A stretch of DNA of 64,000 bases from an uncultured Actinomycetes bacterium (GCA_963704725.1 OY969934.1:2848001-2912000); one strand, 5' to 3'. Counted from the first letter of the stretch, positions 6,653 to 46,680 are shown. Made by a program: numbers and translations. The notes: generated by a model not told the origin, from the letters alone.

Positions 6653-6653
6653 G

Positions 6654-9623: not shown

Positions 9624-10860
9624 GCTCCGCCGCCTCCATGCCTCCGCCGGACCAGCCCGCGGCGAGGTTGACCGGACCGAACCCCTCGGGGAGGGATCCG
9701 CTCCCGTTTCGGTCGACGACGACCGAGCGGTCGAGCTGCCACCGGTCGCGAACCGTGCCGTCCTCCGACAGGATCGCGACCACCGGGAAGTAGATGCCCG
9801 ACCGCAGCGGGATCGGCCGGATCGTGCACGTGATCTCGCCCGACGGCTTGTGGAGCGCGAGCGACGGAGACGCGGCGGCCCCGATCTCGTGGCCGCCCTC
9901 GTCGATGAAGCCGACGCAGAAGATCGCGCGGTCCAATTCCGAGTCCTCGTAGGCGATCCGGAAGTCGATCTCGGTCCCGCCCTGCGCGACCTCTCCGACG
10001 TGCACCTGCTCCACGCGCACGCCGCCCATCCCCCACCGGTTCATGCCGCGCTGCATCATCAGCTTCTTGACCTGCCCCTTCGCCCGGACCTCCTCCGGCG
10101 CCTCGCGACGCTCCATGGCGCGGCCGTACTCGAGCAGGATCGAAGGCGTGTCGCCGTCGCTCACGACCTTCCCGTGGTCGAGCCACACGGCGCGATCCGT
10201 CATGCTCCGGACGAGCCCGAGGTTGTGGGAGACGAACAGGAGCGTGCCGCCGGAGGCCCGGTACCCCTCGAGCCACGTCGCGCACTTCTTCTGGAAGTTG
10301 GCGTCACCCACCGCCAGCACCTCGTCGATGAGGAGCACCTCGGCGTCGAGCGTGGTGATGGCCGCGAACCCGATCCGCGTGATCATCCCGGCCGAGAAGC
10401 GCTTCAGCGGCGTATCGAGCTGCTCCGTGATCTCCGCGAACTCGATCACGCGGTCGATACGGCTGCGCATGGCTCGGCGGCCGAGGCCGTGCATCGCGCC
10501 CAGGAGGAAGATGTTCTCCCGGCCCGTGAGGTCGGGGTGCAGGCCGACGACGACGTCGATGAGCGCGGCCACCCGGCCTCTCGTGGCGACGTGGCCGGTC
10601 GTCGGTGCCGTCACACCGGCGATGACCTTCAGCATCGTCGTCTTCCCGGCCCCGTTGTGACCGACGATCCCCACGGAGGATCCGGCGGGGAAGGTCAGCG
10701 AGACGTCGTGGAGCGCGTCGAACGTGTCGCGCGCCCACCAGTTCGGGAACGTCCGGCGGACGAGCGAGTCGATCGGGAACGGCAGCATCTCGCGGACGCG
10801 GGCTCGGCCCACCCCGACCCGGTAGGTCTTGGTCACGGATTCCAGCGTGAGGAGATCCAT
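9616..10860 (-). CDS. wzt: Polysaccharide ABC exporter ATP-binding subunit with C-terminal extra domain
   Basis: GHNGAGKTT, LTGRENI, FSAGMITRIGF, LLIDEVLAVGDANFQKKC, VSHN; ATG at 10860. Confidence 0.9.
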   Translation of the reverse strand: MDLLTLESVTKTYRVGVGRARVREMLPFPIDSLVRRTFPNWWARDTFDALHDVSLTFPAGSSVGIVGHNGAGKTTMLKVIAGVTAPTTGHVATRGRVAALIDVVVGLHPDLTGRENIFLLGAMHGLGRRAMRSRIDRVIEFAEITEQLDTPLKRFSAGMITRIGFAAITTLDAEVLLIDEVLAVGDANFQKKCATWLEGYRASGGTLLFVSHNLGLVRSMTDRAVWLDHGKVVSDGDTPSILLEYGRAMERREAPEEVRAKGQVKKLMMQRGMNRWGMGGVRVEQVHVGEVAQGGTEIDFRIAYEDSELDRAIFCVGFIDEGGHEIGAAASPSLALHKPSGEITCTIRPIPLRSGIYFPVVAILSEDGTVRDRWQLDRSVVVDRNGSGSLPEGFGPVNLAAGWSGGGMEAAEHG

Positions 10861-11633
10861 CAGATCACGTCCGCGAACCGCGACTTGGTTGCGCCGAAGT
10901 ACCACACGCCGATCACGAGCGCCACGACCGCGCCGACGATCGAGGGCCACAGGTCGCCGAGGTCGGGCGCGTGGCCGCCGATCAGCACCCGGCGGAAGGA
11001 CATGATGAGCCCGGTCATCGGGTTGGCCCTGTAGAACGGCAGGAGGCTGTGCGGGACCTTGCTCAACGGGTACATCACCGGGGTCAGGTAGAGCCACATC
11101 TGCGTGATCAGCGGCACCGCGAGGCGGATGTCGCGGGCGAACACGTTCAGCGCGCTCCCGAACAGGATCAGCCCCGTGGCGAGCACGATCTCGATCAGGA
11201 GCAGGGGGAAGGCCCACAGCGACGTGAGTGGGAGACCGATGCCGCTCGCGATCACGACGATGATGAAGAGGACCACCGTGATGGCGAGGTCGATGAGCCC
11301 CGTGCCGATCATCGACAGCGGGATCGACGCCCGTGGGAAGGCCAGGCGCGTCACCATCGTCTGCTGCATCGCCACGCTCGGCACACCGGCCGTGAGCACG
11401 CTCGAGAAGAACGACCAGGGGGCGAGGCCGGAGAGCGCGAACAGGTAGTACGGCGTATCGCCCGACTCGACCCCGAGCGCCTTGTGGAACACCACCGTCG
11501 CCACCAACAGGCTGATGAGCGGTGGGATCACCGCCCATCCGAGACCGGCCAGCGACTGCCGGTACCTGAGCTGGTACTGCCGTCGGACGAAGGACAGCAC
11601 CAGGGTGCGTCCCCTCCACGTCTCAGCGATCAT
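10860..11633 (-). CDS. wzm: Polysaccharide ABC exporter permease
   Basis: RYRQSLAGLGWAVIPP, LNVFARDI, YLTPVMYP, NPMTGLI, C-terminal RFADVI. Confidence 0.9.
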   Translation of the reverse strand: MIAETWRGRTLVLSFVRRQYQLRYRQSLAGLGWAVIPPLISLLVATVVFHKALGVESGDTPYYLFALSGLAPWSFFSSVLTAGVPSVAMQQTMVTRLAFPRASIPLSMIGTGLIDLAITVVLFIIVVIASGIGLPLTSLWAFPLLLIEIVLATGLILFGSALNVFARDIRLAVPLITQMWLYLTPVMYPLSKVPHSLLPFYRANPMTGLIMSFRRVLIGGHAPDLGDLWPSIVGAVVALVIGVWYFGATKSRFADVI

Positions 11634-11666: not shown

Positions 11667-12773
11667 TCATCGGTGTCGCCCGATCAGGTGGATCCAGTGC
11701 AGCGGGACGCTCCACCTCGCCAGGTAGGACCCGCGAGCGCGGGCCCGGAGGAACTCGCGGCTGGGCAGCAGCAGCTCGGCAAGGTACACGGTCTTGGCCC
11801 GCACGCCGGGGATCGCCCTCGTCGCGGCCAGCGCCATCCCTCCGGCGCGGCGGCGCTCCGTGTAGGCACGCATCGCCCGGCGCTCGGCGCGGCGAGGGGC
11901 CCGCGCCGCGATGCGCCGGGCCGGGGCGGGCAGGTCGGCCTCCAGCTCCCGCCCCGCCACGGCGAAGGCGTGGGAGAAGGCGGCGCCGAGGTGCCACCGC
12001 TCCGCCCAGGACCCGACCCGGTCCCAGTCCACGCCGGGGTGCGCCGCCGTCTGGACCACGTCGCACAGGGGCAGCAGCAGGGGCGGCGACGCTCCGAGCC
12101 CCGCGTGCAGCGCGGCGTTGACGAGCATCCCGGTGCGGTCGAGCCGCTCCAGACGCCGCCCGGCGAGGTCGAAGGTCTCCGTGTGCCGGCACAGCTCGGC
12201 CGGGTCGAGCCACAGGCCGAACGGGCCGAGGACGAGCGTCCGGTGCAGGTCCACCTGCATCCCGGACGCGTCCGAGTGCGTGGCCGCCTTCCCGAACCGC
12301 TCATCGAAGCCGTGCCGAGGTTCGGGAAGGTCGCGGTGGTATCCGTTCGCCTCGAGCACGTCGCACGCGCGGTGCCAGTCCGCGGTCGAGACGAGCAGGT
12401 CCAGGTCGCCGAACGGGCGCATGGACGGGTCGGGGTAGACCGCGTGCGCCACCGCCGGTCCCTTCAGCACGACGACCCGGATCCCGGCGGTCTCGAAGGC
12501 GGCCGCGAGACGCAGGAGGCGCTGCTCGATCGTGAGCGCCTGCACCATCGCCGCCTGGTGGTGCGTAAGCAGACCGTCGACCTGCTCGTCGGAGAGCTCC
12601 ACCGAGCCCGATTCACAGGCGACCATGGCCACCCCCGTGAGCCGATGCAGGTCGAGCCCGGACAGCACGAGCGGCCAGCGGTCGGCCGTGACGCGGACGG
12701 GCTCGGCCGAGCCTCGAAGGCCCGCCGCGGCGATGCGACGGACCTCGGGCGCCGCGACCGGCGCGTCGCTCAC
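11667..12773 (-). CDS. Uncharacterised nucleotidyltransferase (NTP_transf_5 type)
   Basis: VVLKGPAVAHAVYPDPSMRPFGDLDLLV and VDLH motifs; GTG at 12773. Confidence 0.85.
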   Translation of the reverse strand: MSDAPVAAPEVRRIAAAGLRGSAEPVRVTADRWPLVLSGLDLHRLTGVAMVACESGSVELSDEQVDGLLTHHQAAMVQALTIEQRLLRLAAAFETAGIRVVVLKGPAVAHAVYPDPSMRPFGDLDLLVSTADWHRACDVLEANGYHRDLPEPRHGFDERFGKAATHSDASGMQVDLHRTLVLGPFGLWLDPAELCRHTETFDLAGRRLERLDRTGMLVNAALHAGLGASPPLLLPLCDVVQTAAHPGVDWDRVGSWAERWHLGAAFSHAFAVAGRELEADLPAPARRIAARAPRRAERRAMRAYTERRRAGGMALAATRAIPGVRAKTVYLAELLLPSREFLRARARGSYLARWSVPLHWIHLIGRHR

Positions 12774-13048
12774 GATCCACCCCCCCGAACCAGCCACCCC
12801 GCCGACTCGAGCTCGGCCACGAGACCCGCGACGCGCTCGTCGATCTCGGGCCGTCCGACCTCGAACTCGTCCGCGAGCGCGTCGGCGATCTCCGAGAGCG
12901 TCCGCGGCCGGTCCAGGAGCAGCCAGGCCGCCGACGCCGGCAAGGACAGGGCGTGGACGTCGGATCGCTCCGCGGTGGTCAGCACCACCTCGGCGCCGGA
13001 CCGCCTCCACAGCGCGGTCGCCGATCGACCGTAGAAGGGTCCCGTCAA
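12770..13048 (-). CDS. PqqD/RRE-family protein (copy 3)
   Basis: TTG at 13048 overlaps the upstream TGA. 92 aa with HALSLPASAAWLLLDRPRTLSEIADALADEFEV...LVAELESAGWL. Confidence 0.8.
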   Translation of the reverse strand: MTGPFYGRSATALWRRSGAEVVLTTAERSDVHALSLPASAAWLLLDRPRTLSEIADALADEFEVGRPEIDERVAGLVAELESAGWLVRGGGS

Positions 13049-14352
13049 AGCCGCACCACGTTCGAGCGGCGATCTGAGCCGAACGCGTTCCGTGCGTCGA
13101 AGAGCAGCGCGGCGTGATCCGCGATCCAGTCGAGGTCGTAGGCGCGGTGCGGCGTGAGCAGCGCCACGCAGTCGGCGGCGGCGATCTCGCGCTGGGTGAG
13201 CTCGACGCTGGACATGACCGTCCCGTTCGCCTGCACCCGGGGGGCGTGCGGGTCGTGGTACACCACGTCCGCGCCGCGACGCCGCAGCAGCGCGATCACC
13301 TTCAGCGATGGGGACTCCCGCACATCGCCCACGTCGGGCTTGTACGCCACGCCCAGCACCAGGACGCGCGCACCCTTCACGGCCTTCCCCGCCTCGTTCA
13401 GCGCGTCGCCGATCCGAGTCGCGACGTGCCGCGGCATGTGCGCGTTGACATCCTGCGCCTGCTCGAGGATCCGGAACTGGTGGCCGACGTCGCGGCGGAC
13501 CTGCCAGGCCAGGTACGCGGGATCCAGGGGGATGCAGTGCCCGCCCACGCCGGGGCCCGGGCTGAAGGGCATGAACCCGAAGGGCTTCGTCGCGGCCGCC
13601 TCCAGGACCTCCCAGACGTCGATGCCCATCTCGTGGCACAGGGTCGCCATCTCGTTCACGAGCGCGATGTTCACCTGCCGGAAGGTGTTCTCCAGCAGCT
13701 TGGACAGCTCGGCGGCCCGGGACGAGGAGACGACGACGACCTTCTCCACGAGCTGCTCGTAGAACAGCGCCGCCAGACCCGTGGACTCCGGTGAGATGCC
13801 GCCCACGACCTTCGGGGTGTTCCGCAGCCCGAACACCTCGTTGCCCGGGTCGATCCGCTCGGGCGAGTAGGCCAGCGCGAAGTCACGGCCGGCGGCCAGG
13901 CCCGTGCTCTCCAGGATGGGCCGGACGAGCTCCTCGGTCGTGCCCGGATAGGTGGTGGACTCGAGGACGATCAGGGACCCGGGCGTGAGCCGCTCGGCGA
14001 CGTCGCGCGTGGCCCGTTCCACGAACGAGAGGTCCGGGGTGTGGTCGCGGACCGGCGTCGGCACGCAGATCAGGACCACGTCGGCCCCCTCGATGGCGGC
14101 GGCGTCGACGGAGAACGTCGCGTTCCCGGCCTCGATCCCGGCCTGGAAGAGCTTCGGGTCCACGCCGGGGACCGAGAGCACGCCCGCGGCGAGGTCGGCG
14201 GTTCGACCCGCATCCGTGTCGACGCCCACCACCCGGAACCCCGCCTCCGATGCCGCGGACGCGAGGGAGAGGCCGACGTAGCCCTGACCGATGACGGCGA
14301 CGCTCGCACGCCGGGAGACGATCCGGCGCCGAAGGGATGCTGTTGCTCTCAT
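13045..14352 (-). CDS. Nucleotide-sugar (UDP-GlcNAc/GalNAc) 6-dehydrogenase, WbpA/WbpO-like
   Basis: IGQGYVG, ICVPTP, ESTTYPGTT, SPERIDPG, KLLENTFR, GPGVGGHCIPLDP, YKPDVGDVRESP. Confidence 0.93.
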   Translation of the reverse strand: MRATASLRRRIVSRRASVAVIGQGYVGLSLASAASEAGFRVVGVDTDAGRTADLAAGVLSVPGVDPKLFQAGIEAGNATFSVDAAAIEGADVVLICVPTPVRDHTPDLSFVERATRDVAERLTPGSLIVLESTTYPGTTEELVRPILESTGLAAGRDFALAYSPERIDPGNEVFGLRNTPKVVGGISPESTGLAALFYEQLVEKVVVVSSSRAAELSKLLENTFRQVNIALVNEMATLCHEMGIDVWEVLEAAATKPFGFMPFSPGPGVGGHCIPLDPAYLAWQVRRDVGHQFRILEQAQDVNAHMPRHVATRIGDALNEAGKAVKGARVLVLGVAYKPDVGDVRESPSLKVIALLRRRGADVVYHDPHAPRVQANGTVMSSVELTQREIAAADCVALLTPHRAYDLDWIADHAALLFDARNAFGSDRRSNVVRL

Positions 14353-15407
14353 CGAACGACCTCCGAGCCGATGTCCGTTGCAGAGATGTCGGCCGGACCC
14401 TCGTCGAGGGCCGGCGGTCGGTGCGGCAGGGCCCTCGCGACCCGCCGGCGAAGCTTGCGGCCGCGGACACGCGCGCCGTGTGCCGCCCGTCGGAGCTGGG
14501 TGGCAAGGCGGTACCGGCCGGCCGCGAGCCGGGCGGCCACGCCCGGTCGCGGCGCGGCGCGCTCGTACCCGAGCTCGTCCAGCAGGTCCCCCGCGAGCGC
14601 CTCGAAGACGGCGACGTCCCTGGGCGCGAGATCCCGCCGCCAGTCGCGCAGCCCCGCCGTCGGCGGCTTGTACAGGTTCCCGTGGTGCTCGTGGTGCGAC
14701 AGGCTCGGGACGAGCCGGTCGGCGCGCTCGTGGTAGCGGAGCATGCGCTCGTCGAAGTCCAGGCCGACGAACGCGCACACGTCTTGCAGGACGCGCTCCG
14801 GCGCCGCGACGAGCTCCTCGTACCGGACCTCCAGGTACCGCTCCGGCCCGAGGCGCGCCCCCACCGCGCGCCCGACCCGGACGAACCGATCCCAGTACAC
14901 GGCCGCCTGCCCCAACGTCCTCGATCCGAAGTCCGCGGCGAGGTACGACAGGGCGACGTCGCGGCCGTCCCGGATGAGGTGGACGAACCTGGCCTCGGGG
15001 AACGTCGACGCGAGGAGGTCGATGTTGAGCACGTAGCTGGGCGTCTTGTCGCCGTAGCGGGTCTTGCCGTGATGCCGGGCGTAGGTCGCGAAGACGGTTC
15101 GGATCGCCGACGGGACGTCGGGCGGCGCCTCGGCGACGAAGGCGGCCCGCACCTCGTCGCCGGGGAGCCCCCACCGGCGGAAGGCCCAATGATCGAGCAG
15201 GTCCCGGCCGAAGGCGGCGAGGTCGAACCCCGCCTCCGTCTCGTACCGGCGCCTCCGCTGGGCGAGCTGCACGACGAAGTGCGACTCGTTGGGGATGGCC
15301 ATGTCCGGGTGCGCGTCGAGCATGGCCCGCAGGAGCGTGGTGCCGGAGCGGCCGCGCGCGACGACGAACGGGAAAGACCGCTCGGGGGCCAGGGCGTCCG
15401 GGGTCAC
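14349..15407 (-). CDS. Sulfotransferase (Sulfotransfer_3 type)
   Basis: FVVARGRSGTTLLRAMLDAHP, YGDKTP, HLIRDGRDVALS, VRYEEL; GTG at 15407. Confidence 0.9.
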   Translation of the reverse strand: MTPDALAPERSFPFVVARGRSGTTLLRAMLDAHPDMAIPNESHFVVQLAQRRRRYETEAGFDLAAFGRDLLDHWAFRRWGLPGDEVRAAFVAEAPPDVPSAIRTVFATYARHHGKTRYGDKTPSYVLNIDLLASTFPEARFVHLIRDGRDVALSYLAADFGSRTLGQAAVYWDRFVRVGRAVGARLGPERYLEVRYEELVAAPERVLQDVCAFVGLDFDERMLRYHERADRLVPSLSHHEHHGNLYKPPTAGLRDWRRDLAPRDVAVFEALAGDLLDELGYERAAPRPGVAARLAAGRYRLATQLRRAAHGARVRGRKLRRRVARALPHRPPALDEGPADISATDIGSEVVR

Positions 15408-16624
15408 GCACCCTCCACGCTCGCCGGGGGCGGGATGCCGTCCTCCCGAAGTCCGGTTCCGAGCGCCGCCATGCGCCGGCGGAGCCCGGCGATCACGAAG
15501 AGCTGCCCGATCACGACCAACAACGTGACCATCGCCACCGCAACGACGATCACGCCCACCGAGGACCCGCCCTCTGAGGCCCGGGTCGACCGCGGAGCGG
15601 ACCCCACCTCGGACGCGTGGTCCTTCCCCTGTGGGGCCGAGCCGCCGGACGGCGCCACCGGCGAGCCCGTGGGCGCAGGTGCCTGGCCCCCCTTGCCGTC
15701 GCTCCCCTGCGATCCCGACCCCCCCTGCGGCGCGGTCGAAGGCGCAGGCCGGCCGGTGATCCACGCCTGGACGTAGGGGATCACCTGGTCGAGGATCTTG
15801 TTGCCGCCGCCGTAGCCGGCCCCGTGGCCCCCCTGCGCGATCAGCACGTGGTTCTCGACCCCGGCCGCGGCGAGGGCATCGCCCATCGACTGCGCCTGAT
15901 CGATCGGGACGATCTCGTCGGAGCCGTTCACGAGGACCATCGGCGGATCGGAGGGGTCGACGTGGACGATGGGCGAAGCCGCCCGCGCCGTGTCGGCGCA
16001 TGACGGGCCACCCGAGCACCCGAGGAACGTCCGTACGGCCGACCGCATGACCTCGTCGGACGAGTCCACCAGAGGACGCAGGTCCATCATCCCGGACCAG
16101 GACGCCACGACGGACACCCGGGCCCCCTGGTCGAGCGGCCCGGCTCCCATCGCGGCCACGAGCGCCGCCAGATGTCCGCCGGACGAGACGCCGATCGCCC
16201 CGAGCTCGCTCGGATCCACCTGGTACTGCGCGGCGTGTGAGCGGACCCATCGGACCGCGGACCGGACGTCCCGCACGGCGGCGGGGTACGGGAACTCGAG
16301 CGCGGACCGGTACTCGATCGAGAAGGCCGCGATGCCGTGCTGGGCGAAGTACGCCGGCACGTCCGCGTGCTTGGTCTTGTCGATCTCCACCCACTTGCCG
16401 CCCGGGATCACGATCACCGCGGGGAACGGTCCATCGCCGGGCGGCAGGTAGACGTCGAGCGCCAGCGGGATACCGCCGTGCGTCGCGAAGTGGATGTCGG
16501 ACTCGACCTGGACCTCGGTCTGGGCCGCGCTCCGTCCCGGGATCGCGAGGAGCGCGACGAGCACCGTCGCCGCCGCGACCCTCGACGCCGTCCGGCTCAC
16601 CGCCGCGACCCTCCTCACTCCCAT
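15404..16624 (-). CDS. Secreted, C-terminally membrane-anchored alpha/beta hydrolase (esterase)
   Basis: Signal peptide ending SAA-Q, LALDVYLP, IPGGKW, GVSSGGHL, NGSDEIVP, GGHG; P/S/G-rich linker, then a TM helix and RRR. Confidence 0.85.
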   Translation of the reverse strand: MGVRRVAAVSRTASRVAAATVLVALLAIPGRSAAQTEVQVESDIHFATHGGIPLALDVYLPPGDGPFPAVIVIPGGKWVEIDKTKHADVPAYFAQHGIAAFSIEYRSALEFPYPAAVRDVRSAVRWVRSHAAQYQVDPSELGAIGVSSGGHLAALVAAMGAGPLDQGARVSVVASWSGMMDLRPLVDSSDEVMRSAVRTFLGCSGGPSCADTARAASPIVHVDPSDPPMVLVNGSDEIVPIDQAQSMGDALAAAGVENHVLIAQGGHGAGYGGGNKILDQVIPYVQAWITGRPAPSTAPQGGSGSQGSDGKGGQAPAPTGSPVAPSGGSAPQGKDHASEVGSAPRSTRASEGGSSVGVIVVAVAMVTLLVVIGQLFVIAGLRRRMAALGTGLREDGIPPPASVEGA

Positions 16625-18219
16625 GACCACGCCTTCGACATCGCCTCGTCCTCCACCGCGCGGCGATCGACCTTCCCGGTGGACGTGGTGGGGAGCCCGG
16701 CCCGCACCTCGACACCCACCGGGATCATGTGGCGGGGCAGCCGGCGCGCCGCCCCCCGCTTGAGATCGAGCGCGGTCACCTCCGCCCCGTCCCTCGGAAC
16801 GACGTACGCGACGATCGCCTTCCCCCAATCCTCATGAGGAACCGCCACCGCGACCGCGATCTCGACGGCGGGATCGGCGTTCAGCGCCGCCTCGATCTCG
16901 CCGAGCTCGATGCGGTAGCCGCGGCTCTTGACCTGGTGGTCACGGCGACCGAGGAAGTCGTAGTCGCCGTCCGGTCGGAGCCGGACGAGATCTCCCGTCC
17001 GGTAGACCGGCTGGGGAAGCTCGGGCCGGAGCGGATCGCGGACGAGGACCTCCGCCGAGCGCTCGGGCCGGCCCCAGTACCCCTGCATGACCGCCGATCC
17101 CCGAACGTAGAGCTCGCCCTCCTCGCCCACGGCGGCGAGCGTCCCATCCTCCCGGAGCGCGAACACGTCCGTGTTCTCGCACGCGCGTCCGATCGGGATC
17201 GTGGCGTCGTCCTCCGGAAGATCGCGCACCGGGTAGTAGGTGCAGACGTTCGTCTCGGTGGGTCCGTAGAGGTTCCACAGGTCGGCGTTCGGAACGAGGG
17301 TGCGGAGCGCTCGCAGGTGTTTCGTGGGGTAGACCTCGCCGGCGAACACCACGGCCCGCAGGTCGGGGATCGTGTCCCCCTCACGCGACGCGCGCGTCAG
17401 CACCATGAGGGCGGACGGGACCGAGTACCACACGGTGATCCGCTCCCGGCGCACGAACTCGGCCAGGTCGCGGCCGAAGTACGCCCACTCCTCAGGGACG
17501 ACCGTCACGGTGGCGCCGCCGAACGCGGCCACGTAGAAGTCGAAGACCGACAGGTCGAAGTGGAGCGGCGCGTGGTTCGAGAAACGGTCCTCGGGGCCGG
17601 TCCCGATCGCCGACGCGCACCACTCGACGAACGTGAGGGCGTGCCGGTGCGTGAGCATGACGCCCTTCGGCACGCCCGTCGACCCGGACGTGTAGAGGAT
17701 GTAGGCGAGGTCGGTGTCGATGACGGGGATCCGCACCTCGGTCGGGCCGGAGCGCACGACGTCGTCGAACCGCACGGTCGCCAGGCCGGGGAGGGAGGCG
17801 TCACCGTCGCCGACGAGGATCGCGAGGCGCGGCCGGTGGCCCTCGAGCGCGTCGAGCAGCCCGGGTGCCCGGTCCGCGGTGGACACGATCGCGCTCACCG
17901 TGCAGTCCCTGGCGATGGCCCCGGCGCGCAGGACGGGCGATTTCGGATCGATCGGCACGTACGCCGCCCCCGCCCGCAGCACGCCGTACATCGCCGTCAC
18001 CGTCTCGACGCCCTTCGGTGCGTAGAGCGCGACGCGGTCGCCCCGGCCGACGCCCGCGTCCAGGAGCGCTGCAGCGACGGCCGCGGAGCCGCGCGCCAGC
18101 TCCCCGTACGTGAGCGATCGCCCGTGGCTGCGGATCGCCTCGTGGTCGGGCGACGAACCCGCGACCCGGTCCACCAGTTGATGCAGCGCGAAGACCGACA
18201 CCCCGTTGCTCCTCGTCAT
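16615..18219 (-). CDS. Standalone L-proline adenylation enzyme (PltF/RedM/CloN4-like)
   Basis: YILYTSGSTGVPKG, NHAPLHFDLSVFD, VWYSVPS, FAGE, NLYGPTETNVCT, YRTGD, GKVDR. Specificity code read by eye: DLFYVALVCK. Confidence 0.85.
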   Translation of the reverse strand: MTRSNGVSVFALHQLVDRVAGSSPDHEAIRSHGRSLTYGELARGSAAVAAALLDAGVGRGDRVALYAPKGVETVTAMYGVLRAGAAYVPIDPKSPVLRAGAIARDCTVSAIVSTADRAPGLLDALEGHRPRLAILVGDGDASLPGLATVRFDDVVRSGPTEVRIPVIDTDLAYILYTSGSTGVPKGVMLTHRHALTFVEWCASAIGTGPEDRFSNHAPLHFDLSVFDFYVAAFGGATVTVVPEEWAYFGRDLAEFVRRERITVWYSVPSALMVLTRASREGDTIPDLRAVVFAGEVYPTKHLRALRTLVPNADLWNLYGPTETNVCTYYPVRDLPEDDATIPIGRACENTDVFALREDGTLAAVGEEGELYVRGSAVMQGYWGRPERSAEVLVRDPLRPELPQPVYRTGDLVRLRPDGDYDFLGRRDHQVKSRGYRIELGEIEAALNADPAVEIAVAVAVPHEDWGKAIVAYVVPRDGAEVTALDLKRGAARRLPRHMIPVGVEVRAGLPTTSTGKVDRRAVEDEAMSKAWSWE

Positions 18220-18232
18220 GCGAACGCCCGCC

Positions 18233-19399
18233 TCACAGCCCGAGACGCTTGGCGATGATCCGGCGCTGGATCTCCGACGTCCCCGAGTAGATCCGCCCCC
18301 CGACCGCGTCGCGGAGCGCGCGCTCGATCTCGAACTCCGTCGTGTAGCCGTACCCGCCGTGGATCTGCACCGCGTCGAGGTGGGTCCGGACGTTCGCCTC
18401 GCTGATGAAGAGCTTGGCGATCGCGGATTCGAGCGTCGTCTCGCGGCCTTGGTCCATGAGCCATCCGACGCGGAGGGCCAGCGCGCGACCGGCGTCCACC
18501 GCGACGCGCATGTCGGCGATCTTGTCCGAGACGGACTCGAACCGCCCGATCGGCTGTCCGAACTGCCGGCGATCCTTCGCGTACCGGATGCAGGTCTCCA
18601 TCGTGCGACGCATGAGGCCGACCTGGCTCGCCATGATGCACGCGCGCTCCCACTGCATCGAGCGCATGAAGACCTCGGCCCCCCGGCCGACGCGGCCGAG
18701 GACCGCGTCGTCGGGAACGAAGCACTCGTCGAACGCGACCTCCGCCATCGGTGAGGTCCGCAGGCCCATCTTGTCGATCTCGCCGGTGGCGTCCATCCCG
18801 GGAGTGCCGCCCGGGACGATGAACGCGGTGATCCCGTAGGGTCCGATCCCCTCGCTCGTCCTGGCGAACGCGATGAGCAGGTCCGCGACCGGCGCGTTGG
18901 AGATGAACGTCTTCCGGCCCTTCAGGACCCAGCCACCCGGAGCCCGCATGGCGGAGGTCGTGATCGAGAACGGATCGGAGCCCGCGTCGGGCTCCGTCAT
19001 GGCATGGCAGCCCACGAGGGCGCCCGAGCAGAGCCCGGGGAGCCAGGTCCGCCGCTGGTCCTCGGTCCCGAAGTGCCACAGCGGAACGACGCTCGTCCAC
19101 ATGTGTGCGTTGATGGCGAAGACGAGCCCGTTGTCGACGCATCCGTAGCCGAGGGCCTCGAGCGCGAGGATGGTCGTCACGACGTCGGCACCGCCGCCGC
19201 CGTACTCCTCCGGAGCCGGCAGCCCGTGGATCCCGAACTCCCCGCACCGATCCCACACCTCGCGCGGGAAGATGGCGTCGCGATCGTGGGCGCGGACGTC
19301 GTCTCGGGGCAGGGTGCGGGCGAAGCCGACGACGGCGTCGTAGAACGCCGCCTGCTCGGGCGTCACCCACTCGAGGAGGGGCGGCGCCGTGACCGTCAC
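18233..19399 (-). CDS. Acyl-CoA dehydrogenase family, prolyl-S-PCP dehydrogenase type (PltE/RedW/CloN3-like)
   Basis: EALGYGCVDNGLVFAINAH, TEPDAGSD, KTFISNAP, MQWER, RQFGQPIG, IHGGYGY, IYSGTSEIQR; GTG at 19399. Confidence 0.85.
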   Translation of the reverse strand: MTVTAPPLLEWVTPEQAAFYDAVVGFARTLPRDDVRAHDRDAIFPREVWDRCGEFGIHGLPAPEEYGGGGADVVTTILALEALGYGCVDNGLVFAINAHMWTSVVPLWHFGTEDQRRTWLPGLCSGALVGCHAMTEPDAGSDPFSITTSAMRAPGGWVLKGRKTFISNAPVADLLIAFARTSEGIGPYGITAFIVPGGTPGMDATGEIDKMGLRTSPMAEVAFDECFVPDDAVLGRVGRGAEVFMRSMQWERACIMASQVGLMRRTMETCIRYAKDRRQFGQPIGRFESVSDKIADMRVAVDAGRALALRVGWLMDQGRETTLESAIAKLFISEANVRTHLDAVQIHGGYGYTTEFEIERALRDAVGGRIYSGTSEIQRRIIAKRLGL

Positions 19400-19641
19400 G
19401 CGGCGGCGACCTTCCGTTCCACCAGGGCGGCGATGTCCTGGACCGTGCCGAAGTGCGCCGACGTGAGCTCCTGGTCGTCGACCTCGATCTCGAACCGCTC
19501 CTCGATGAACGTGATCAGCTGCATGAGCCCGACGGAGTCGAGCACACCCCCCCACAGCGGGGTGTCGTCGCTCAGCTGTGTGTCGTCGTCCAGGAGCAGC
19601 TCGGTCTTGATGTAGTCCCGGATGCTTGCGGCACGGTCCAT
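19396..19641 (-). CDS. Acyl/peptidyl carrier protein
   Basis: 81 aa, acidic; GVLDSVGLMQL phosphopantetheine site; SD GGAGG upstream. Confidence 0.9.
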   Translation of the reverse strand: MDRAASIRDYIKTELLLDDDTQLSDDTPLWGGVLDSVGLMQLITFIEERFEIEVDDQELTSAHFGTVQDIAALVERKVAAA

Positions 19642-19681: not shown

Positions 19682-20038
19682 TCAGGCGGCCGAGCCGCTC
19701 TTGAGCTCGACGATGCGCTTGATCGCCGAGGCCCGACGCCGGAAGCACTGTCGGCGCGAGATCCCCAGCGTCCTCGCGATGCTCGTGGCCGGCTCCTGCA
19801 CGACGTACCACAGATACAGGAGCCGGCGATCCGGCTCGCTCAGGTGCTGCATCCGTCGGCGCAGCTCCGACCGCTCGTCCAGCCGGTCCAGGAGCCCGGT
19901 TCCGATGCCGTCGGCCATCTCGCTGGAGCGCCTCGCGGCCCCCACCAGCAGCACCGAAGACGAGGTCGGCTGCCACCAGTCCGTGTACGTGATGAGCCCG
20001 CGGACCACGTCGGATGCGGAGTCGAGAATCGCCGACAT
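19682..20038 (-). CDS. Small HTH protein with sigma-70 region 4-like C-terminus
   Basis: LSEPDRRLLYLWY...SIARTLGISRRQCFRRRASAIKRI; no region 2 recognisable. Confidence 0.65.
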   Translation of the reverse strand: MSAILDSASDVVRGLITYTDWWQPTSSSVLLVGAARRSSEMADGIGTGLLDRLDERSELRRRMQHLSEPDRRLLYLWYVVQEPATSIARTLGISRRQCFRRRASAIKRIVELKSGSAA

Positions 20039-20046
20039 CTTGCAGG

Positions 20047-21831
20047 CTACTCCTTCGTGGCGGGACGCGACAGGTGGGGGATACCCTCATCCGATCTCGT
20101 CGCCTCGCCGTTCCCGTGCGCGGCGGCCTCGCCGTTCCCGTGCGCGGCGCCGCCGTTCGTCTCGTGAACCAGCACGACGGGCGGAGCCGGCGGTTTCGAG
20201 GACGCCGACCGATCTCGTGCCGGAGCCTGGTAGCGGTACCGCGAGCGATCGGTGGCCTGCCGGATGAGACCCCGGGCCACCCCGTTCAGGATGACGCCGG
20301 TGACGGGCGCCTTGAGGAGCCCGAGGACCTCGGCGGTCCGCCGAGCCGATCCCGCATCGGTCGCCCCCGCGCGCGCTACCACGATGACCGCGTCGACCGA
20401 CGGGATCAGCTGGGTCCAGTCGCTCGCCGTGAGCACAGGCGACGTGTCGACGACGATGACGTCGGCCGACGAGCGCAGGGCGGCGAGCAGCTCCTGGACG
20501 CGATCGGACCCGAAGAGGCCGGCCGTCCTGTTGGGCACCCGCCCGGTGGAGATCACGCGTAGGCCCTCGAGCGCCGTGTCCTGCAGCACCGACTCGAGCC
20601 GAACGGCCCCGCCCTCGAGGAACTCGGTCAGGCCGGGCTCCAGCGCGACGCCGAGCGCGGCGTGCAACGTCGGGTGACGATAGTCGGCGCCCACGACCAC
20701 GACGCGCTTGCCGTTCTCCGCGAACGTGGCGGCGAGGTTGGCCGCCACGGTCGACCGTCCCTCGCGCGGTTCACCGCTCGTCACGAGCACCGTGTGCGCG
20801 AAGCCGGCGTCGCCCTGGCCCTCACCCGGCGAGCCCTGCTGCCAGCCCAGCTGCAGGGACGCGGCGAGGAGCCGGAACGCGTTCGCGGCGGGACCCCGCG
20901 GTGCGGTCTCCATGAGGAGGGCGGCGCGGCGCCGCCTCCCCGTCGACGGGATCACCGCGAGCACGGGGAGCCCGTAGGCGTCCTCCGCGGCGGGCTTCCT
21001 CCGGATCCTGGTGTCGAACCGCTCCAGCAGGAGCGCCAGCGCGATCCCGAGCAGCAGTCCGATCCCGCCGGCGATCGCCAGGCGGATCGTCCGCGAGCGC
21101 GGCGCCTGGATGCCGGGGTCGGTGGCGACCCGCGTCGCGGTCGCGGGCTCCACGACCTCGTACCCGGCGAGGTTGCCGCCGGAGTCCGTGGACAGGTTGG
21201 TGAGCTGCTGCTGGAGGATCTGGCGTTGTCCGTCGAGCGAGTCGATCTGCGCCTGGATCTGAGAACCCTCCCCGCCTCCGGTGGACGGAACGGTCGAGTG
21301 GATCCCGCTGTCCCCGGCCGCCGGCGGCGGCAACTGGTCGGTGAGTCGCGCGATCCGCCGGTCGAGGCGGTCGATCTGACGCCGCAGCGACTCCACCTGG
21401 ACCGTGGTTCGGTCGGAGAGGAACCCGATGAGCTCGTTGGCGAACGTGTCCGCCACGAGCTTGGCGCGCGCGGCCGTCGGAGCCCTCGCCGTGATGTTCA
21501 GCAGCTGCGTCGTGTCGTCGGGCACGGCCGAGACGGTGGCGGCGAGCGCCGCAGGATCCCCGTCGAAGCTGATCGTGTCCGCGACCCGTCGCGGGACCTC
21601 GCCCAGGGTGGCCAGGGCGGCCACGGTGTCGAGGCTCCCGCCCCCCCGCACGCCGAAGCTCGTGGAGGTGCTGAGGAGGTAGGTCGTGGCCGTGAACCCG
21701 GTGCTCGGCGCCTCGACGTGCGAGGGCTCGTTCGGCGACAGCAGCCAGCCGACGGCGAGCGCGACGATGAGGCAGGCCAGGACGACCTTCCATCGCCGCG
21801 CGATGCCGCCGAGGTATTCGGTCAGACCCAT
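20047..21831 (-). CDS. Wzc-like polysaccharide co-polymerase/BY-kinase with degenerate catalytic motifs
   Basis: Two TM helices flanking a coiled coil; ERFDTRIR, LPVLAVIP, TSGEPREGRSTVAANLA, VVDTSP, GVILN. Confidence 0.85.
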   Translation of the reverse strand: MGLTEYLGGIARRWKVVLACLIVALAVGWLLSPNEPSHVEAPSTGFTATTYLLSTSTSFGVRGGGSLDTVAALATLGEVPRRVADTISFDGDPAALAATVSAVPDDTTQLLNITARAPTAARAKLVADTFANELIGFLSDRTTVQVESLRRQIDRLDRRIARLTDQLPPPAAGDSGIHSTVPSTGGGEGSQIQAQIDSLDGQRQILQQQLTNLSTDSGGNLAGYEVVEPATATRVATDPGIQAPRSRTIRLAIAGGIGLLLGIALALLLERFDTRIRRKPAAEDAYGLPVLAVIPSTGRRRRAALLMETAPRGPAANAFRLLAASLQLGWQQGSPGEGQGDAGFAHTVLVTSGEPREGRSTVAANLAATFAENGKRVVVVGADYRHPTLHAALGVALEPGLTEFLEGGAVRLESVLQDTALEGLRVISTGRVPNRTAGLFGSDRVQELLAALRSSADVIVVDTSPVLTASDWTQLIPSVDAVIVVARAGATDAGSARRTAEVLGLLKAPVTGVILNGVARGLIRQATDRSRYRYQAPARDRSASSKPPAPPVVLVHETNGGAAHGNGEAAAHGNGEATRSDEGIPHLSRPATKE

Positions 21832-22370
21832 GCGCGGTCACCTCCACCGCTCCTCGAGAGGAAGAGTCCGACTGCGGCCGCAGCGTTCGGCACCCCCAGC
21901 TTCGAGAAGATCTTCGTCTTGTGACGCTCCACGGTCTTCGGACTGATGCCGAGCTGGCGTGCGACCTGCTTGCCGGCGAGGCCCCGCGCCACCAGCGTGA
22001 GCACCTCGCTCTCGCGGCTCGTCAGGTGGTGCGGTCTGGCGTGCGGCGATCCACCGTTGGGGTTGAGCGCGGCGGCGAGCGAGGCGACGCGCGCCTCGGG
22101 CGAGACGCGGACGGATTCGCCGTCCGGGTCGTCGCCGCCGATGAACACGACGCGGATGCCGAGGCTCCGCAGCCGGCGGGCGGCGCTCTCCGCCTCGGGC
22201 ATCTCGGTGTCGATGGCCACGGCGTCCACCCGGTGGCCGAGCCGGACGACCTCGGTCTCGGTGGTGGCGGTCCCTACGGCGGCGATGCCCGGATACCGGC
22301 CCAGCGCCGTCGCCAGGCCCTCGGCGAACATGGCCTGCCGGTGGGCCACCACGACCGTGCAGACGGTCAT
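21822..22370 (-). CDS. LuxR-family regulator with shortened, degenerate receiver domain
   Basis: LTSRESEVLTLVARG...LGISPKTVERHKTKIFSKLGV; N-terminus VVAHRQAMF lacks the DD pair. Confidence 0.85.
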   Translation of the reverse strand: MTVCTVVVAHRQAMFAEGLATALGRYPGIAAVGTATTETEVVRLGHRVDAVAIDTEMPEAESAARRLRSLGIRVVFIGGDDPDGESVRVSPEARVASLAAALNPNGGSPHARPHHLTSRESEVLTLVARGLAGKQVARQLGISPKTVERHKTKIFSKLGVPNAAAAVGLFLSRSGGGDRAWV

Positions 22371-24226
22371 ACGCGTACCACGTCCGGCACGAATCCGGTC
22401 TGCGCGAGGTCCTTCATCCGTCCGGCGAGGATCTCGTGGTCGTCCTGGAGGAGCTCGAGCTCGCGGAGCGCCCGCTTCAGGGCGGCCCGGTCGGGCGCCT
22501 CGGGGCGGGAGACCATGATGCCCTCGTGGCCGCTTGCCTCGGGGTGCTCCCGCGGGTCGAGCAGGTCCTCGATGAGCTTCTCCCCGGGGCGCCGCCCGAC
22601 CACGTCGATGCGGACGTCCTTGCCGGGGACCCGCCCGGAGAGATGGATCAGGCGCCGCGCCAGATCCAGGATGTTCACCGGCTCACCCATCTCGAGCGTG
22701 AACACCTCGCCCCCCTCCGACATCGCCGCGGCCTGCAGGACGAGACACACGGCCTCCTGGATGCTCATGAAGAACCGGGCCATCGAGGGATCGGTGACGG
22801 TGAGGGGGCCGCCGGCCGCGATCTGCCGGAGGAACGTCGGGACGACGCTGCCCCGGCTCCCGAGCACGTTGCCGAATCGAACCGCGCACATGACGGATCC
22901 GGTGGCCTGCAGGCTCCGGACGATCTGCTCCGCGAACCACTTCGAGGAGCCCATCACGCTCTCCGGGCGGACCGCCTTGTCGGTGGAGACCAGGACGAAC
23001 CGGCCCACGCCGACCGCAGAGGCGGCCTCCGCCACGTTGGCGGTGCCGAGCACGTTCGTGCGGAAGGCCTCGGCGGGGTGGGTCTCCAGCAGCGGGACGT
23101 GCTTGTGGGCGGCGGCGTGGAAGACCACGTCGGGCCGCTCGGAGAAGAAGACCTCGAGCACCCGGTCCCGGTCGCGGACGTCGGCCAGCGCGCAGCTCAC
23201 CGGCAGCGCCGGGTCGAGGTCCGACATCACGTCGTGCAGATGGGTCTCGTCGTGGTCGAGGAGCGTCACGTGCTCGGGCTCGAACGTGAGGACCTGGCGG
23301 ACGATCTCCGATCCGATCGAGCCCCCGGCGCCCGTGATCAGCACCCGCTGCCCGGCGAGCATGGTGCGGACCGCCTCGTCGTCCATCGCCACCTGCTGCC
23401 GCCCCAGGAGGTCCTCGATGCTCAGGTCGCGGATGTCGCGGGCGGTGACCCGCCCGCGAACGGTCTCTCGGACCGTGGGGAGCACGCGCAGGGTCAGCCC
23501 CACCTCCTCGCACCGCGACGCGACGTCGCGGACGAGGTCGCTCGTCGCCGACGGGATCGCCAGGAGCACCTGGTCGGCCTGCGTCCGCCTGGCGATCGCG
23601 TCCAGCGCCGCGCGCGAACCCTGCACCCGGATGCCGTGCAGCGACAGTCCGACCTTCCGCGGGTCGTCGTCGACGTATCCGACCGGCACCAGGCCGAGCT
23701 CGTGGCTGCGCAGGATGTCGCGGACCACCATGGACCCGGCCTCGCCGGCTCCCACCACGAGGACCCGGGTCGGCTCGTCATGGGCGACGCGCCGCCGGAA
23801 GGCGAACAGGCGACTCTGGAAACGGACCGCACCGAACGCGATGAACGCGAGCGTGGGACCGAACACGGCCACCGACAGCGGGATCACGTGGACCTCCACC
23901 GCGGTCACCTCAACCAGAGCCACCACGGCCCCCAGGGCCGTCACCCCGGCCAGCACGACCCGGCGCGCTTCCTGGACGCTCGCGTATCGCCACATCTGCC
24001 CGTACAGGCCGAACAGGAAGTTGCAGGCAACGTGGATCAGGACGATCGCCGGAAGGAACCGCCAGAACGAGTGCCACCAGCTGGGCTCCACCGTTCCCTC
24101 GAGGCGGACAACCAGGCTTCCCAGGTAGGAGCCGATGACCAGCAGGATGTCCAACAGCACCAGTGGCGCATCGCTCCGGACCCTGGCGACGATTCGCGAG
24201 GCGGCGTTGACCGGCTCCTCGGTCAT
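22367..24226 (-). CDS. CapD/PglF-type membrane-bound UDP-GlcNAc 4,6-dehydratase
   Basis: N-terminal TMs, VVGAGEAG, IEDLLGR, TGAGGSIGSE, HAAAHKHVP, STDKAV, VRFGNVLGSRGSVVP, RPGEKL. Confidence 0.92.
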   Translation of the reverse strand: MTEEPVNAASRIVARVRSDAPLVLLDILLVIGSYLGSLVVRLEGTVEPSWWHSFWRFLPAIVLIHVACNFLFGLYGQMWRYASVQEARRVVLAGVTALGAVVALVEVTAVEVHVIPLSVAVFGPTLAFIAFGAVRFQSRLFAFRRRVAHDEPTRVLVVGAGEAGSMVVRDILRSHELGLVPVGYVDDDPRKVGLSLHGIRVQGSRAALDAIARRTQADQVLLAIPSATSDLVRDVASRCEEVGLTLRVLPTVRETVRGRVTARDIRDLSIEDLLGRQQVAMDDEAVRTMLAGQRVLITGAGGSIGSEIVRQVLTFEPEHVTLLDHDETHLHDVMSDLDPALPVSCALADVRDRDRVLEVFFSERPDVVFHAAAHKHVPLLETHPAEAFRTNVLGTANVAEAASAVGVGRFVLVSTDKAVRPESVMGSSKWFAEQIVRSLQATGSVMCAVRFGNVLGSRGSVVPTFLRQIAAGGPLTVTDPSMARFFMSIQEAVCLVLQAAAMSEGGEVFTLEMGEPVNILDLARRLIHLSGRVPGKDVRIDVVGRRPGEKLIEDLLDPREHPEASGHEGIMVSRPEAPDRAALKRALRELELLQDDHEILAGRMKDLAQTGFVPDVVRV

Positions 24227-24321
24227 GACATCCTGCACGGGCCCTCCTGCCGAAGGAAAACGAAGTCCCGAGTCTAGGTAAGGCGGATCTGCGCTCTCAT
24301 CCATCGCCGCGCGTATCTTGC

Positions 24322-25164: not shown

Positions 25165-25236
25165 TCAGGTGCTGCGCGGCTTGCCGATCCGAGCCCGTCT
25201 GCGGGCGTCGTACGGCCGCATCCCCGGCTCGGTCAT
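25165..25236 (-). CDS. Putative 23-aa small peptide MTEPGMRPYDARRRARIGKPRST
   Basis: Its ATG overlaps the PqqD stop (ATGA) and its TGA directly abuts the next ATG, filling the gap exactly. Confidence 0.35.
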   Translation of the reverse strand: MTEPGMRPYDARRRARIGKPRST

Positions 25237-25517
25237 CTGGCGGGCTCGGCGCGGCCGTTCATCAGGCCCAGCGATCGGAGCCTCCGGATCAGGGCCCGGA
25301 TCTCCGATTCGACCTGGTCGGCCGGTACGCCGAACGCGTCGGCCACCTCCGCCGCGAGCTCGCGGACCGTGGCGGTCCCGTCCAGGAGCCCGAAGACCAA
25401 CGTGGCCGAGGGGTTGAGGTGGTGGAGCTCACCCGAGCGCTCGTCGTAGATCACCGCCTCCCCGTCGAGCTCGACGACCGTGAGGTCCTCGCGGACGCGG
25501 GGGCGCGAGGCGGCCAC
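25233..25517 (-). CDS. PqqD/RRE-family protein (copy 2)
   Basis: ELDGEAVIYDERSGELHHLNPSATLVFGLLDGTATVRELA...LRSLGL. Confidence 0.9.
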   Translation of the reverse strand: MAASRPRVREDLTVVELDGEAVIYDERSGELHHLNPSATLVFGLLDGTATVRELAAEVADAFGVPADQVESEIRALIRRLRSLGLMNGRAEPAR

Positions 25518-25518
25518 G

Positions 25519-46463: not shown

Positions 46464-46680
46464 GACTACCCCCCGTTGCATGTCTTGTTGCACGTTCCGT
46501 CACTGTCCGGTCGACGATCACGTCTGAGCGGATCGGTCGACCGGATGCCAGCGGCGGACGCCCGAACAGGTGAGTTCGATTAGGGCAATCATGGCGGTTC
46601 AACCCCGCGCGGACCTCATCCGAACGGCTCATTTGCTGCCATCTGGTGGACGTTCGTCCTAAGCCACACGCCGACGCCGA

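Follow-up and report, generated by a model that had tools for sequence, protein, structure and literature searches.

The stretch of DNA analysed here (the window; 64,000 nucleotides, G000:C1:2848001-2912000) comes from an uncultured Actinomycetes bacterium, whose genome is a single contig of 3.45 Mb with approximately 72% G+C. It contains a candidate proline-to-pyrrole cassette of three genes in tandem, encoding a carrier protein, a dehydrogenase and a stand-alone adenylation enzyme, embedded in a polysaccharide locus. Genes were called by codon-position G+C, and nearly all window genes lie on the minus strand, including the trio, for which the outer coordinates in the original prediction (16615-19641) proved exact. 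The carrier gene (19396-19641) encodes a stand-alone acyl/peptidyl carrier of 81 residues. The GTG start codon of the dehydrogenase gene (18233-19399, 388 residues) overlaps the TGA stop codon of the carrier gene as GTGA, and a spacer of 13 bases separates the dehydrogenase from the adenylation gene (16615-18219, 534 residues), the end of which overlaps the start of a gene for a BD-FAE hydrolase. The longest mechanical open reading frame (ORF) over the dehydrogenase, 18216-19370, was rejected, as its translation is Arg-rich nonsense.

As in cassettes of the PltF/PltL/PltE type, the carrier is small and contains a phosphopantetheine serine. It matches PF00550 (PP-binding) with 27.6 bits (cut-off 20.8), and Asp35-Ser36 at the attachment site, Ser36, is unchanged in 16/16 orthologues. 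The reading frame is stop-bounded and free-standing, with no thioesterase fusion. In NCBIfam it scores highest with the ornithine-lipid carrier family (62.5 bits, cut-off 130). A third PP-binding match in the genome, at G000:C1:1699584-1699727, lies within a 308-residue open frame, apart from both the fatty acid synthase (FAS) genes and the cassette.

The adenylation enzyme matches the AMP-binding domain with 286.5 bits and the amino-acid adenylation domain model TIGR01733 with 394 bits (cut-off 317). The best single-domain solved relative of the whole enzyme is PltF, an L-proline-[L-prolyl-carrier protein] ligase (6o6e_B, 365 bits), with DltA entries at about 200 bits. When only the pocket fragment (residues 195-345) was compared, PltF scored 137.7 bits and the prolyl ligase 7thn_B 88 bits, followed by the next entry at 69 bits and DltA at 66 bits. 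The pocket code DLFYVALVCK had been read by eye; it was reproduced both from the alignment to 6o6e_B and from motif positions, using what we take to be the GrsA numbering, and the A10 lysine was found in TSTGKVDR. Over nine residues, the query (DLFYVALVC) is identical to PltF (DLLYLALVC) and to 7thn_B (DLFYIAWVC) at seven positions each. The code DLFY[V/L/I]A[L/W/I]VCK is present in 19/19 sequences (the window enzyme and 18 orthologues at 47-72% identity), and the pocket of one orthologue matches that of 7thn_B at all nine positions. Because the pocket code, the scores against PltF and 7thn_B and the conservation among orthologues agree, the best substrate call for this stand-alone enzyme is proline. 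The pocket is not of the type that activates alanine or serine, the outcome named beforehand as contradicting a proline cassette.

The dehydrogenase has the acyl-CoA dehydrogenase (ACAD) fold, with all three ACAD domains found, and resembles FAD-dependent prolyl-carrier-protein dehydrogenases. In NCBIfam it scores highest with PigA (413.5 bits, cut-off 500) and with the L-prolyl-PCP (peptidyl carrier protein) dehydrogenase RedW (410.4 bits, cut-off 650); the third-ranked family reaches only 288.6 bits, more than 120 bits below these two. In the PDB it matches 4irn ('prolyl-ACP dehydrogenase', 374.5 bits), 6cxt_B (306.2 bits) and 5zw0 ('L-prolyl-PCP dehydrogenase', 292.6 bits), whereas generic acyl-CoA dehydrogenases score 267 bits at most. 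We take 4irn to be AnaB and 6cxt_B, which was deposited as 'butyryl-CoA dehydrogenase', to be Bmp3. The signatures GYGCVDNGLVFAINAH and WER, by which the enzyme had been recognised, are present and align with those of 4irn; GYGC.DNGL.FA.NAH and WER are common to both proteins in the printed alignments. In the segment YSGTSEIQ, the enzyme has a serine at what is presumably the position of the catalytic glutamate of medium-chain ACADs. Given that the top families and structures are of the prolyl type and that the scores fall under the cut-offs, sequence comparison groups the dehydrogenase with prolyl-carrier dehydrogenases but not as a PigA or RedW equivalog. Its product would most likely be the aromatic pyrrole, requiring a four-electron oxidation, and less likely a pyrroline. 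Related metagenomic sequences form at least 120 clusters at ≥66% identity; three of these are labelled 'L-prolyl-PCP dehydrogenase' by one source, and the NCBI names are those of metagenome-assembled genomes of Actinomycetota.

The trio is therefore of the PltF/PltE/PltL kind, as originally proposed from its proline-type pocket, prolyl-carrier-type dehydrogenase and carrier, and we consider it likely that the cassette converts proline to pyrrolyl-S-carrier. Where it departs from PltF/PltL/PltE-type cassettes is in lacking a downstream polyketide synthase (PKS), non-ribosomal peptide synthetase (NRPS) or ketosynthase. The window had been described as devoid of a PKS, an NRPS or a β-ketoacyl-ACP synthase III (KAS III) acceptor, which is true and extends genome-wide for PKS, NRPS and any extra KAS III. 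The complete 3.45 Mb genome contains no condensation domain, one true ketosynthase, located beside the FAS carrier, and one KAS III (FabH) beside FAS genes; on this count the cassette is an orphan. The genome-wide search for a partner PKS thus found none, the sole ketosynthase being FAS-type, and neither a PKS nor an NRPS was found just outside the window or in relatives bearing the cassette. The class comprises 123 genomes with a completeness of 90% or more, and a dehydrogenase orthologue at E ≤1e-110 was found in 17 of them, counting G000. Condensation domains scored over the cut-off in 2/123 of these genomes and in 0/17 with the cassette, and 16/17 cassette genomes have a single ketosynthase, with two in G048.

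To follow the cassette across relatives, we used tblastn with the window proteins on 23 stretches around a dehydrogenase orthologue, drawn from published genomes of six or more families. The adenylation gene is present in 19/23 stretches, and for the others (G083, G064, G262 and G250) it lies elsewhere in the genome; a carrier at ≥35% identity is present in 18/23. Homologues of the glycan genes of the window occur in 16/23 related loci, so the glycan setting of the cassette is conserved. One stretch (L011) is fully syntenic with the window locus. On contig 185 of G083, nearly the whole locus is repeated, with three hydrolase pairs, a DegT gene and an 80%-identical copy of the halogenase found in our genome. 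Elsewhere the gene order is rearranged: L069 has dehydrogenase, carrier, hydr2, hydr1 and adenylation genes (hydr1 and hydr2 are described below) within a locus of family 4 glycosyltransferase (GT4), GNAT and sulfotransferase genes, and L067 and L068 have the order helix-turn-helix (HTH) gene, dehydrogenase, Wzm, Wzt, family 2 glycosyltransferase (GT2), hydr2, hydr1, sulfotransferase. In L019 (G018:C1:919100-939099) and L037, the copies of the cassette and of hydr1 are broken into fragments or contain stop codons, a sign that the module may be decaying in some lineages. In G083 (L034, L074) the cassette is split, with a carrier and the dehydrogenase on one contig and a second carrier and the ligase in the glycan locus.

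The cassette is accompanied by pairs of small α/β hydrolases of two unlike types, which we call hydr1 and hydr2. In our genome they are found in the order hydr2, hydr1, hydr2, hydr1 on the same strand as the last GT2 gene of the window, starting 57 nucleotides outside window base 1, and in L012, L014 and L015 two such hydrolases flank the cassette. Each type has its own top NCBIfam model, 'hydrolase 1, exosortase A system-associated' (TIGR03100) for hydr1 and 'hydrolase 2' (TIGR03101) for hydr2, with the flanking pairs of L012, L014 and L015 far below the cut-offs and all four proteins of our genome well below them (hydr1, 65.9 and 70.4 bits against 168; hydr2, 78.7 and 93.2 bits against 203). 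In 7/23 stretches such hydrolase genes are no more than 1.2 kb away from a cassette gene, and 12/23 have them at any position. Among the class genomes, a hydr1 homologue is present in 15/17 with the cassette and in 8/106 without it.

The motif G-x-C-x-G of hydr1 is invariant in 65/65 sequences, down to 33% identity, and His285 and Asp149 are near-invariant. In an AlphaFold model (pLDDT 85.6), Cys121 sits between the strand 114-120 and the helix 122-133, which is the predicted position of the nucleophile elbow. A Foldseek search of the PDB with this model returned generic α/β hydrolases only, with TM scores of 0.60 or less. The corresponding motif of hydr2 is G-x-R-x-G, arginine occupying the nucleophile position in no fewer than 90% of 105 sequences, and hydr2 looks from its sequence like a pseudo-hydrolase or an enzyme with a new active-site layout. 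The 105 aligned relatives of hydr2 also share a near-invariant Cys57 and a WW motif; the two hydr2 genes of our genome are at L039:19021-19944 and 17148-18092. The hydr2 family is very large, with 5039 representative clusters at E ≤0.001 and 318 at 1e-30. By inspection, neither hydr1 nor hydr2 has a signal peptide. The thiol nucleophile of hydr1 fits acyl transfer from a thioester, and SyrC and CmaE are α/β-fold aminoacyltransferases with a catalytic cysteine. CmaE and CouN7 are described as shuttles of that kind in an excerpt of PMC8748450. A predicted complex of hydr2, hydr1 and the carrier gave a median score of 0.30 against a mark of 0.32 and was counted neither way. A second carrier cassette of the genome (G000:C1 about 666,600-671,800; L040:8622-13805) comprises a fused hydr2-hydr1 of 624 residues, a P450, a fatty acyl-AMP ligase and a 91-residue carrier of the same type as the window carrier.

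Halogenases are a further companion. The original prediction had noted that there is none in the window, which is correct; genome-wide, there is one PltA-type gene (2778595-2780007), approximately 68 kb before the window and the sole halogenase locus of the genome. Its product matches ChlB4 (7fco, 565 bits), 5buk (555 bits) and PltA (5dbj, 542 bits). In three related stretches, halogenases similar to PltA and 5buk and matching Pfam Trp_halogenase directly adjoin the cassette: L013 (two copies), L014 and L032, the last with the order halogenase, carrier, dehydrogenase, ligase. These cassette-side halogenases score 285 bits against 5buk and 277 bits against PltA (5dbj). A halogenase homologue at E ≤1e-40 is present in 12/17 cassette genomes of the class and in 3/106 others; the latter three possess hydr1 and only ordinary ACADs. 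The class counts include three unpublished genomes (G041, G049 and G065), each positive for cassette, hydr1 and halogenase; without them, hydr1 is present in 12/14 cassette genomes and a halogenase in 9/14. The co-occurrence of halogenase and cassette speaks for an aromatic pyrrole as the product, at least in some lineages.

Other acyl cassettes appear at the same kind of locus. A benzoate-CoA-ligase-family enzyme (TIGR02262, 403 bits, cut-off 375) is encoded beside two 3-deoxy-D-arabino-heptulosonate 7-phosphate (DAHP) synthases, one of them with a long extension, at L039:3081-7047 (G000:C1:2831081-2835047), and an orthologue of this ligase adjoins a halogenase and hydr1 in G103. This set may provide a second aromatic acyl decoration. 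We had taken the halogenase of our genome as proof that the pyrrole is halogenated, but downgraded it given the benzoate-type ligase and the arrangement in G103. In G009, which belongs to the same genus and does not have the trio, a halogenase-carrier pair lies between Wzc and a sugar dehydrogenase (L073; G009:C50:10000-29999), with three hydrolase pairs upstream. Because this pair fills the slot of the trio, the locus seems to swap acyl-carrier cassettes in the way that glycan loci swap sugar genes.

All genes from position 29748 down to position 3 are on the minus strand and either overlap or are separated by short gaps. The statement that all neighbours of the cassette are glycan genes holds for most of them, but not for two small regulators and a secreted esterase. 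Upstream of the cassette lie genes for a membrane-anchored nucleotide-sugar 4,6-dehydratase similar to CapD and PglF (22367-24304; Polysacc_synt_2, 348 bits, with transmembrane segments), a LuxR-type regulator (21822-22370; GerE, 64.5 bits), a Wzc-like chain-length determinant/tyrosine autokinase (20047-21831; TIGR01007, 112.6 bits, over the cut-off) and, just before the carrier gene, a small HTH protein resembling sigma-70 region 4 (19682-20038; weak match to Sigma70_r4_2), homologues of which adjoin the cassette in L013, L019, L035-L037, L067, L068 and L074. Downstream of the esterase gene are a sulfotransferase (14349-15407; Sulfotransfer_3, 139.6 bits), a nucleotide-sugar dehydrogenase (13045-14352; TIGR03026, 413 bits), a PqqD-like ORF (12770-13048), a nucleotidyltransferase of the NTP_transf_5 family (11667-12797), the ABC exporter subunits Wzm (10860-11633; ABC2_membrane) and Wzt (9616-10950; ABC_tran) and a second sulfotransferase (8751-9623; Sulfotransfer_3, 65.4 bits). 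The two sulfotransferases are kept in most related loci, which suggests that the surface polysaccharide is sulfated. A gene at 7834-8750, skipped by the gene caller and recognised by eye in frame -2, has what we take to be polysaccharide deacetylase motifs and a homologue at the corresponding place in L074. It is followed by three GT4 genes (4377-7832), a GNAT-fold protein (3349-4380), the multi-transmembrane protein unk457 (1975-3348; no Pfam or NCBIfam match), an O-antigen-ligase-like membrane protein seen by eye only (about 920-1975) and a GT2 gene (3-923), which ends 41-43 nucleotides past the window start (genome 2847958-60).

The four α/β hydrolases lie past the window, 13 bases after this GT2 gene (genome 2844219-2847944, minus strand). 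They are followed by a deacetylase-like gene, a GT4, an initiating transferase of the Glycos_transf_4 family, a DegT aminotransferase and a gene resembling HprK-related kinases, and further on in the extended locus by the two DAHP synthases, the benzoate-CoA-ligase-family enzyme and a GT2. Several genes recur with the locus in relatives, namely two PqqD genes, the PqqD-like ORF, NTP_transf_5, an HprK-related-kinase-A-like protein and a familyless protein of 280 residues; this set lies at 25233-25803, 12770-13048, 11667-12797 and 24322-25164 of the window and at L039:9952-10878. Farther into the window, a minus-strand ORF of 1609 residues (41664-46493) occupies a stretch of lower G+C content (about 0.68).

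The esterase encoded directly after the adenylation gene (15404-16630) is an α/β hydrolase of the BD-FAE family (PF20434, 141.8 bits), with the carbohydrate esterase 6tkx and the acetyl xylan esterase 6xyc as its top PDB relatives. On inspection, its N-terminus is positively charged, then hydrophobic, and ends in AAQ, resembling a signal peptide; the domain contains the motif GVSSG, after which come a linker rich in Pro, Gly and Ser and, at the C-terminus, a hydrophobic helix followed by RRR, which we read as a membrane anchor. We rejected this protein as a cytoplasmic CouN7-like acyltransferase in view of its export signal, linker, membrane anchor and esterase matches: being exported and membrane-anchored, it would be unable to meet a cytoplasmic carrier. 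The esterase may remove acyl groups held by ester bonds from the polymer after export, a hint that acyl esters exist outside the cell.

Several known systems share part of this arrangement. In the PltF/PltL/PltE cassette and the prodiginine/undecylprodigiosin sets, too, a stand-alone Pro-type adenylation enzyme is combined with a small carrier and a prolyl-carrier dehydrogenase of the ACAD fold, but here there is no PKS, NRPS or extra ketosynthase to act as acceptor, the dehydrogenase scores below the equivalog cut-offs, and the cassette lies within a polysaccharide operon. The closest functional precedent for acylation of a carbohydrate that we found in the excerpts consulted is CloN1-N7/CouN1-N7 of clorobiocin and coumermycin biosynthesis. 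According to an excerpt of PMC11218499, CloN2, CloN1 and CloN7 relay the pyrrole-2-carboxyl group, formed from proline on a carrier, to a sugar hydroxyl, and an excerpt of PMC8748450 gives CouN7 a role in pyrrolyl transfer to the sugar of coumermycin. The acceptor in the CloN/CouN systems is the deoxysugar of an aminocoumarin small molecule, and a second carrier is involved, whereas here the acceptor would be a polymer; the two carriers of G083 recall CloN5/CloN1.

The nearest genomic pattern to the cassette plus hydrolase pairs is the XrtA-associated set (ligase_PEP_1, TIGR03098; hydr1_PEP, TIGR03100; hydr2_PEP, TIGR03101), in which a ligase, a carrier and two unlike hydrolases occur in exopolysaccharide loci, as they do here. 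TIGR03098 is the second-best NCBIfam model of the adenylation enzyme (328.8 bits, cut-off 592), and the proteins of our genome fall well under the cut-offs of all three models. The XrtA-associated set also contains a PLP (pyridoxal phosphate) decarboxylase (TIGR03099), and it does not share the prolyl-carrier dehydrogenase of the window cassette. A literature search, which did not cover subscription journals, found a paper that lists TIGR03100 but no functional study of the XrtA-associated set, and to our knowledge it is uncharacterised.

Among orphan proline-to-pyrrole pathways, Bmp1-4 is the nearest in the source consulted, with a halogenase, hydrolytic release and no PKS or NRPS: the four-gene bmp1-4 locus suffices for tetrabromopyrrole, with no need of a PKS or NRPS, according to an excerpt of PMC6195506. 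The halogenases of the loci described here are similar to PltA and 5buk (277-565 bits) and not to 5bul and 5bva (116-170 bits). Bmp1 is a carrier-thioesterase fusion, whereas the carrier here is free-standing, and the setting is a glycan operon. The analogy to Dlt-type D-alanylation drawn in the original prediction is weak. The adenylation enzyme reaches 287 and 281 bits on the two DltA models (cut-offs 476 and 560) and the carrier 27 bits on DltC (cut-off 68), and neither an MBOAT (DltB) nor a DltD-like family was found in Pfam scans of 30 window proteins, which left out 7834-8750, about 920-1975 and the genes beyond 33454. What Dlt has in common with the window locus is the general logic of an adenylation enzyme and a small carrier acylating an envelope glycopolymer, of which AlmEFG, which adds glycine to lipid A, is a further Dlt-like case. 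Transfer in our system would instead be cytoplasmic, via Cys hydrolases, ahead of ABC export.

We propose the following pathway. By homology, the adenylation enzyme would activate L-proline and load it onto Ser36 of the 81-residue carrier, and the flavoenzyme would oxidise prolyl-S-carrier, most likely to the pyrrole-2-carbonyl thioester. From here on, gene neighbourhood is our guide. The PltA-type halogenase encoded elsewhere in the genome might optionally halogenate the ring. The cysteine of cytoplasmic hydr1, with its Arg-bearing partner hydr2, would then accept the acyl group as a thioester, and hydr1 would hand it on to a sugar of the lipid-linked glycan, at either a hydroxyl or an amino function. 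The CapD/PglF-like dehydratase and the DegT aminotransferase imply a 4-amino sugar, which is one candidate for the acceptor. The GT4 and GT2 enzymes would extend the glycan, to be followed by sulfation and export through Wzm/Wzt, and the secreted membrane-anchored esterase would trim or remodel ester-linked acyl groups outside the cell. In our judgement the chances are about even that pyrrole-2-carbonyl, possibly halogenated, leaves the carrier in this way and reaches, by way of the Cys hydrolase, a polysaccharide that is sulfated and exported by an ABC transporter, and does not prime a polyketide or peptide. More tentatively, and with the balance somewhat against it, we suggest the wider generalisation that high-GC Actinomycetota, uncultured and little studied, decorate a sulfated, ABC-exported cell-surface polysaccharide with pyrrole-2-carbonyl, halogenated in many of the lineages, and that hydr1/hydr2 are a new class of carrier-dependent glycan acyltransferases that also serve benzoate-type and fatty acyl cassettes.

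A number of observations weigh against the proposed destination of the pyrrole group. We infer the polysaccharide as the destination from gene neighbourhood, and 7/23 related loci are without homologues of the window glycan genes, although two of these seven are contigs of less than 6 kb. In L016 and L017 the cassettes are surrounded by unrelated genes of housekeeping type (NAD synthase, SIMPL, Kelch, E1 dehydrogenase, MsrA). No hydr1 was seen in 2/17 cassette genomes, both of them fragmented assemblies, and the hydrolase pair might just as well act as a thioesterase and free the acid. The halogenase of our genome, encoded at a distance of 85 kb from the cassette and surrounded by unrelated genes, could instead serve the benzoate-CoA-ligase-family enzyme. 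The dehydrogenase is below the equivalog cut-offs of both PigA and RedW, and its best solved match, 4irn, is presumably AnaB, which we take to stop at the pyrroline. Furthermore, the relatives are not independent of each other, so the cross-tabulations overstate the association and the tallies are descriptive only.

The main rival explanation, which we regard as unlikely, is a Bmp-like pathway: the trio would cooperate with a halogenase, hydr1/hydr2 would act as a thioesterase releasing free (halo)pyrrole-2-carboxylic acid, or a halopyrrole after decarboxylation, and the glycan genes would be mere neighbours. Such a pathway would suit the match of the dehydrogenase to 6cxt_B (306 bits), presumably Bmp3, the halogenases that accompany the cassette (12/17 against 3/106 genomes) and the absence of glycan neighbours in L016 and L017. 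Hydrolysing α/β hydrolases with a Cys nucleophile exist, dienelactone hydrolase being an example. Precedent for the absence of a PKS or NRPS comes from bmp1-4, which makes tetrabromopyrrole without either (excerpt of PMC6195506). Against this pathway, the 81-residue carrier is free-standing and has no thioesterase fusion like that of Bmp1. Mere neighbourhood is harder to reconcile with a cassette that is interleaved with glycan genes in several orders across families, with the other halogenase-carrier pair occupying the Wzc/sugar-dehydrogenase slot in G009, which is of the same genus and without the trio, and with the translational coupling of a secreted carbohydrate esterase to the adenylation gene. 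Two or three hydrolase pairs per locus resemble diversification of acceptors or donors and not a single release step, and neither in G026, the closest fully syntenic relative, nor in G071 is the cassette accompanied by a halogenase at E ≤1e-40.

In another rival, the proposed pathway might involve only a two-electron oxidation, or no relevant oxidation, and put a pyrroline-carbonyl or prolyl group on the glycan; the best solved match of the dehydrogenase, 4irn (374.5 bits), is above 5zw0 (292.6 bits), we take AnaB to perform two-electron chemistry, and the four-electron equivalog cut-offs of PigA and RedW are both missed. We nevertheless think this improbable, since PigA and RedW lead the next NCBIfam family by more than 120 bits, and PltA/5buk-type halogenases, which act on aromatic acyl-S-carriers, are encoded directly beside the cassette in three relatives. 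It is also quite improbable, in our estimation, that the acceptor is not a glycan but a membrane lipid, the head group of a lipid-linked precursor or a protein, in a locus that would then mix several envelope functions. The best NCBIfam model of the carrier is an ornithine-lipid carrier (62.5 bits, cut-off 130), at another site of the genome a carrier of this type is paired with a fatty acyl-AMP ligase, and relatives of hydr1/hydr2 are widespread (5039 representative clusters at E ≤0.001), but no lipid-synthesis gene was found among the window and extension proteins scanned, and the genes that are conserved alongside encode glycosyltransferases, sulfotransferases and an ABC glycan exporter. 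Finally, two pocket positions of the adenylation enzyme are unlike PltF (239, F for L; 299, V for L), as might be expected if it activated an amino acid other than proline, such as a proline analogue, so that the product would be no pyrrole. As each of these replacements is conservative and is also seen in solved prolyl ligases or in orthologues, and as the partner dehydrogenase is of the prolyl-carrier type, we give this very little credence.

Small antibiotics are known to carry pyrrole-2-carbonyl and halopyrrole units as pharmacophores, and we know of no case in which either is attached to a bacterial surface polymer; the literature search, with the same coverage as above, found no pyrrole-decorated polysaccharide. 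If our proposal is true, an aromatic and possibly halogenated acyl group would be added to the chemistry of bacterial polysaccharides. It provides a testable role for a very widespread but unnamed hydrolase pair and, if the wider generalisation is true, there would also be a function for the long-unexplained exosortase-A-associated ligase, carrier and hydrolase genes. It would show that 'orphan' natural-product cassettes in genomes free of PKS and NRPS can belong to envelope biosynthesis, and caution is needed with genome-mining tools, which would label such loci as cryptic pyrrole gene clusters.

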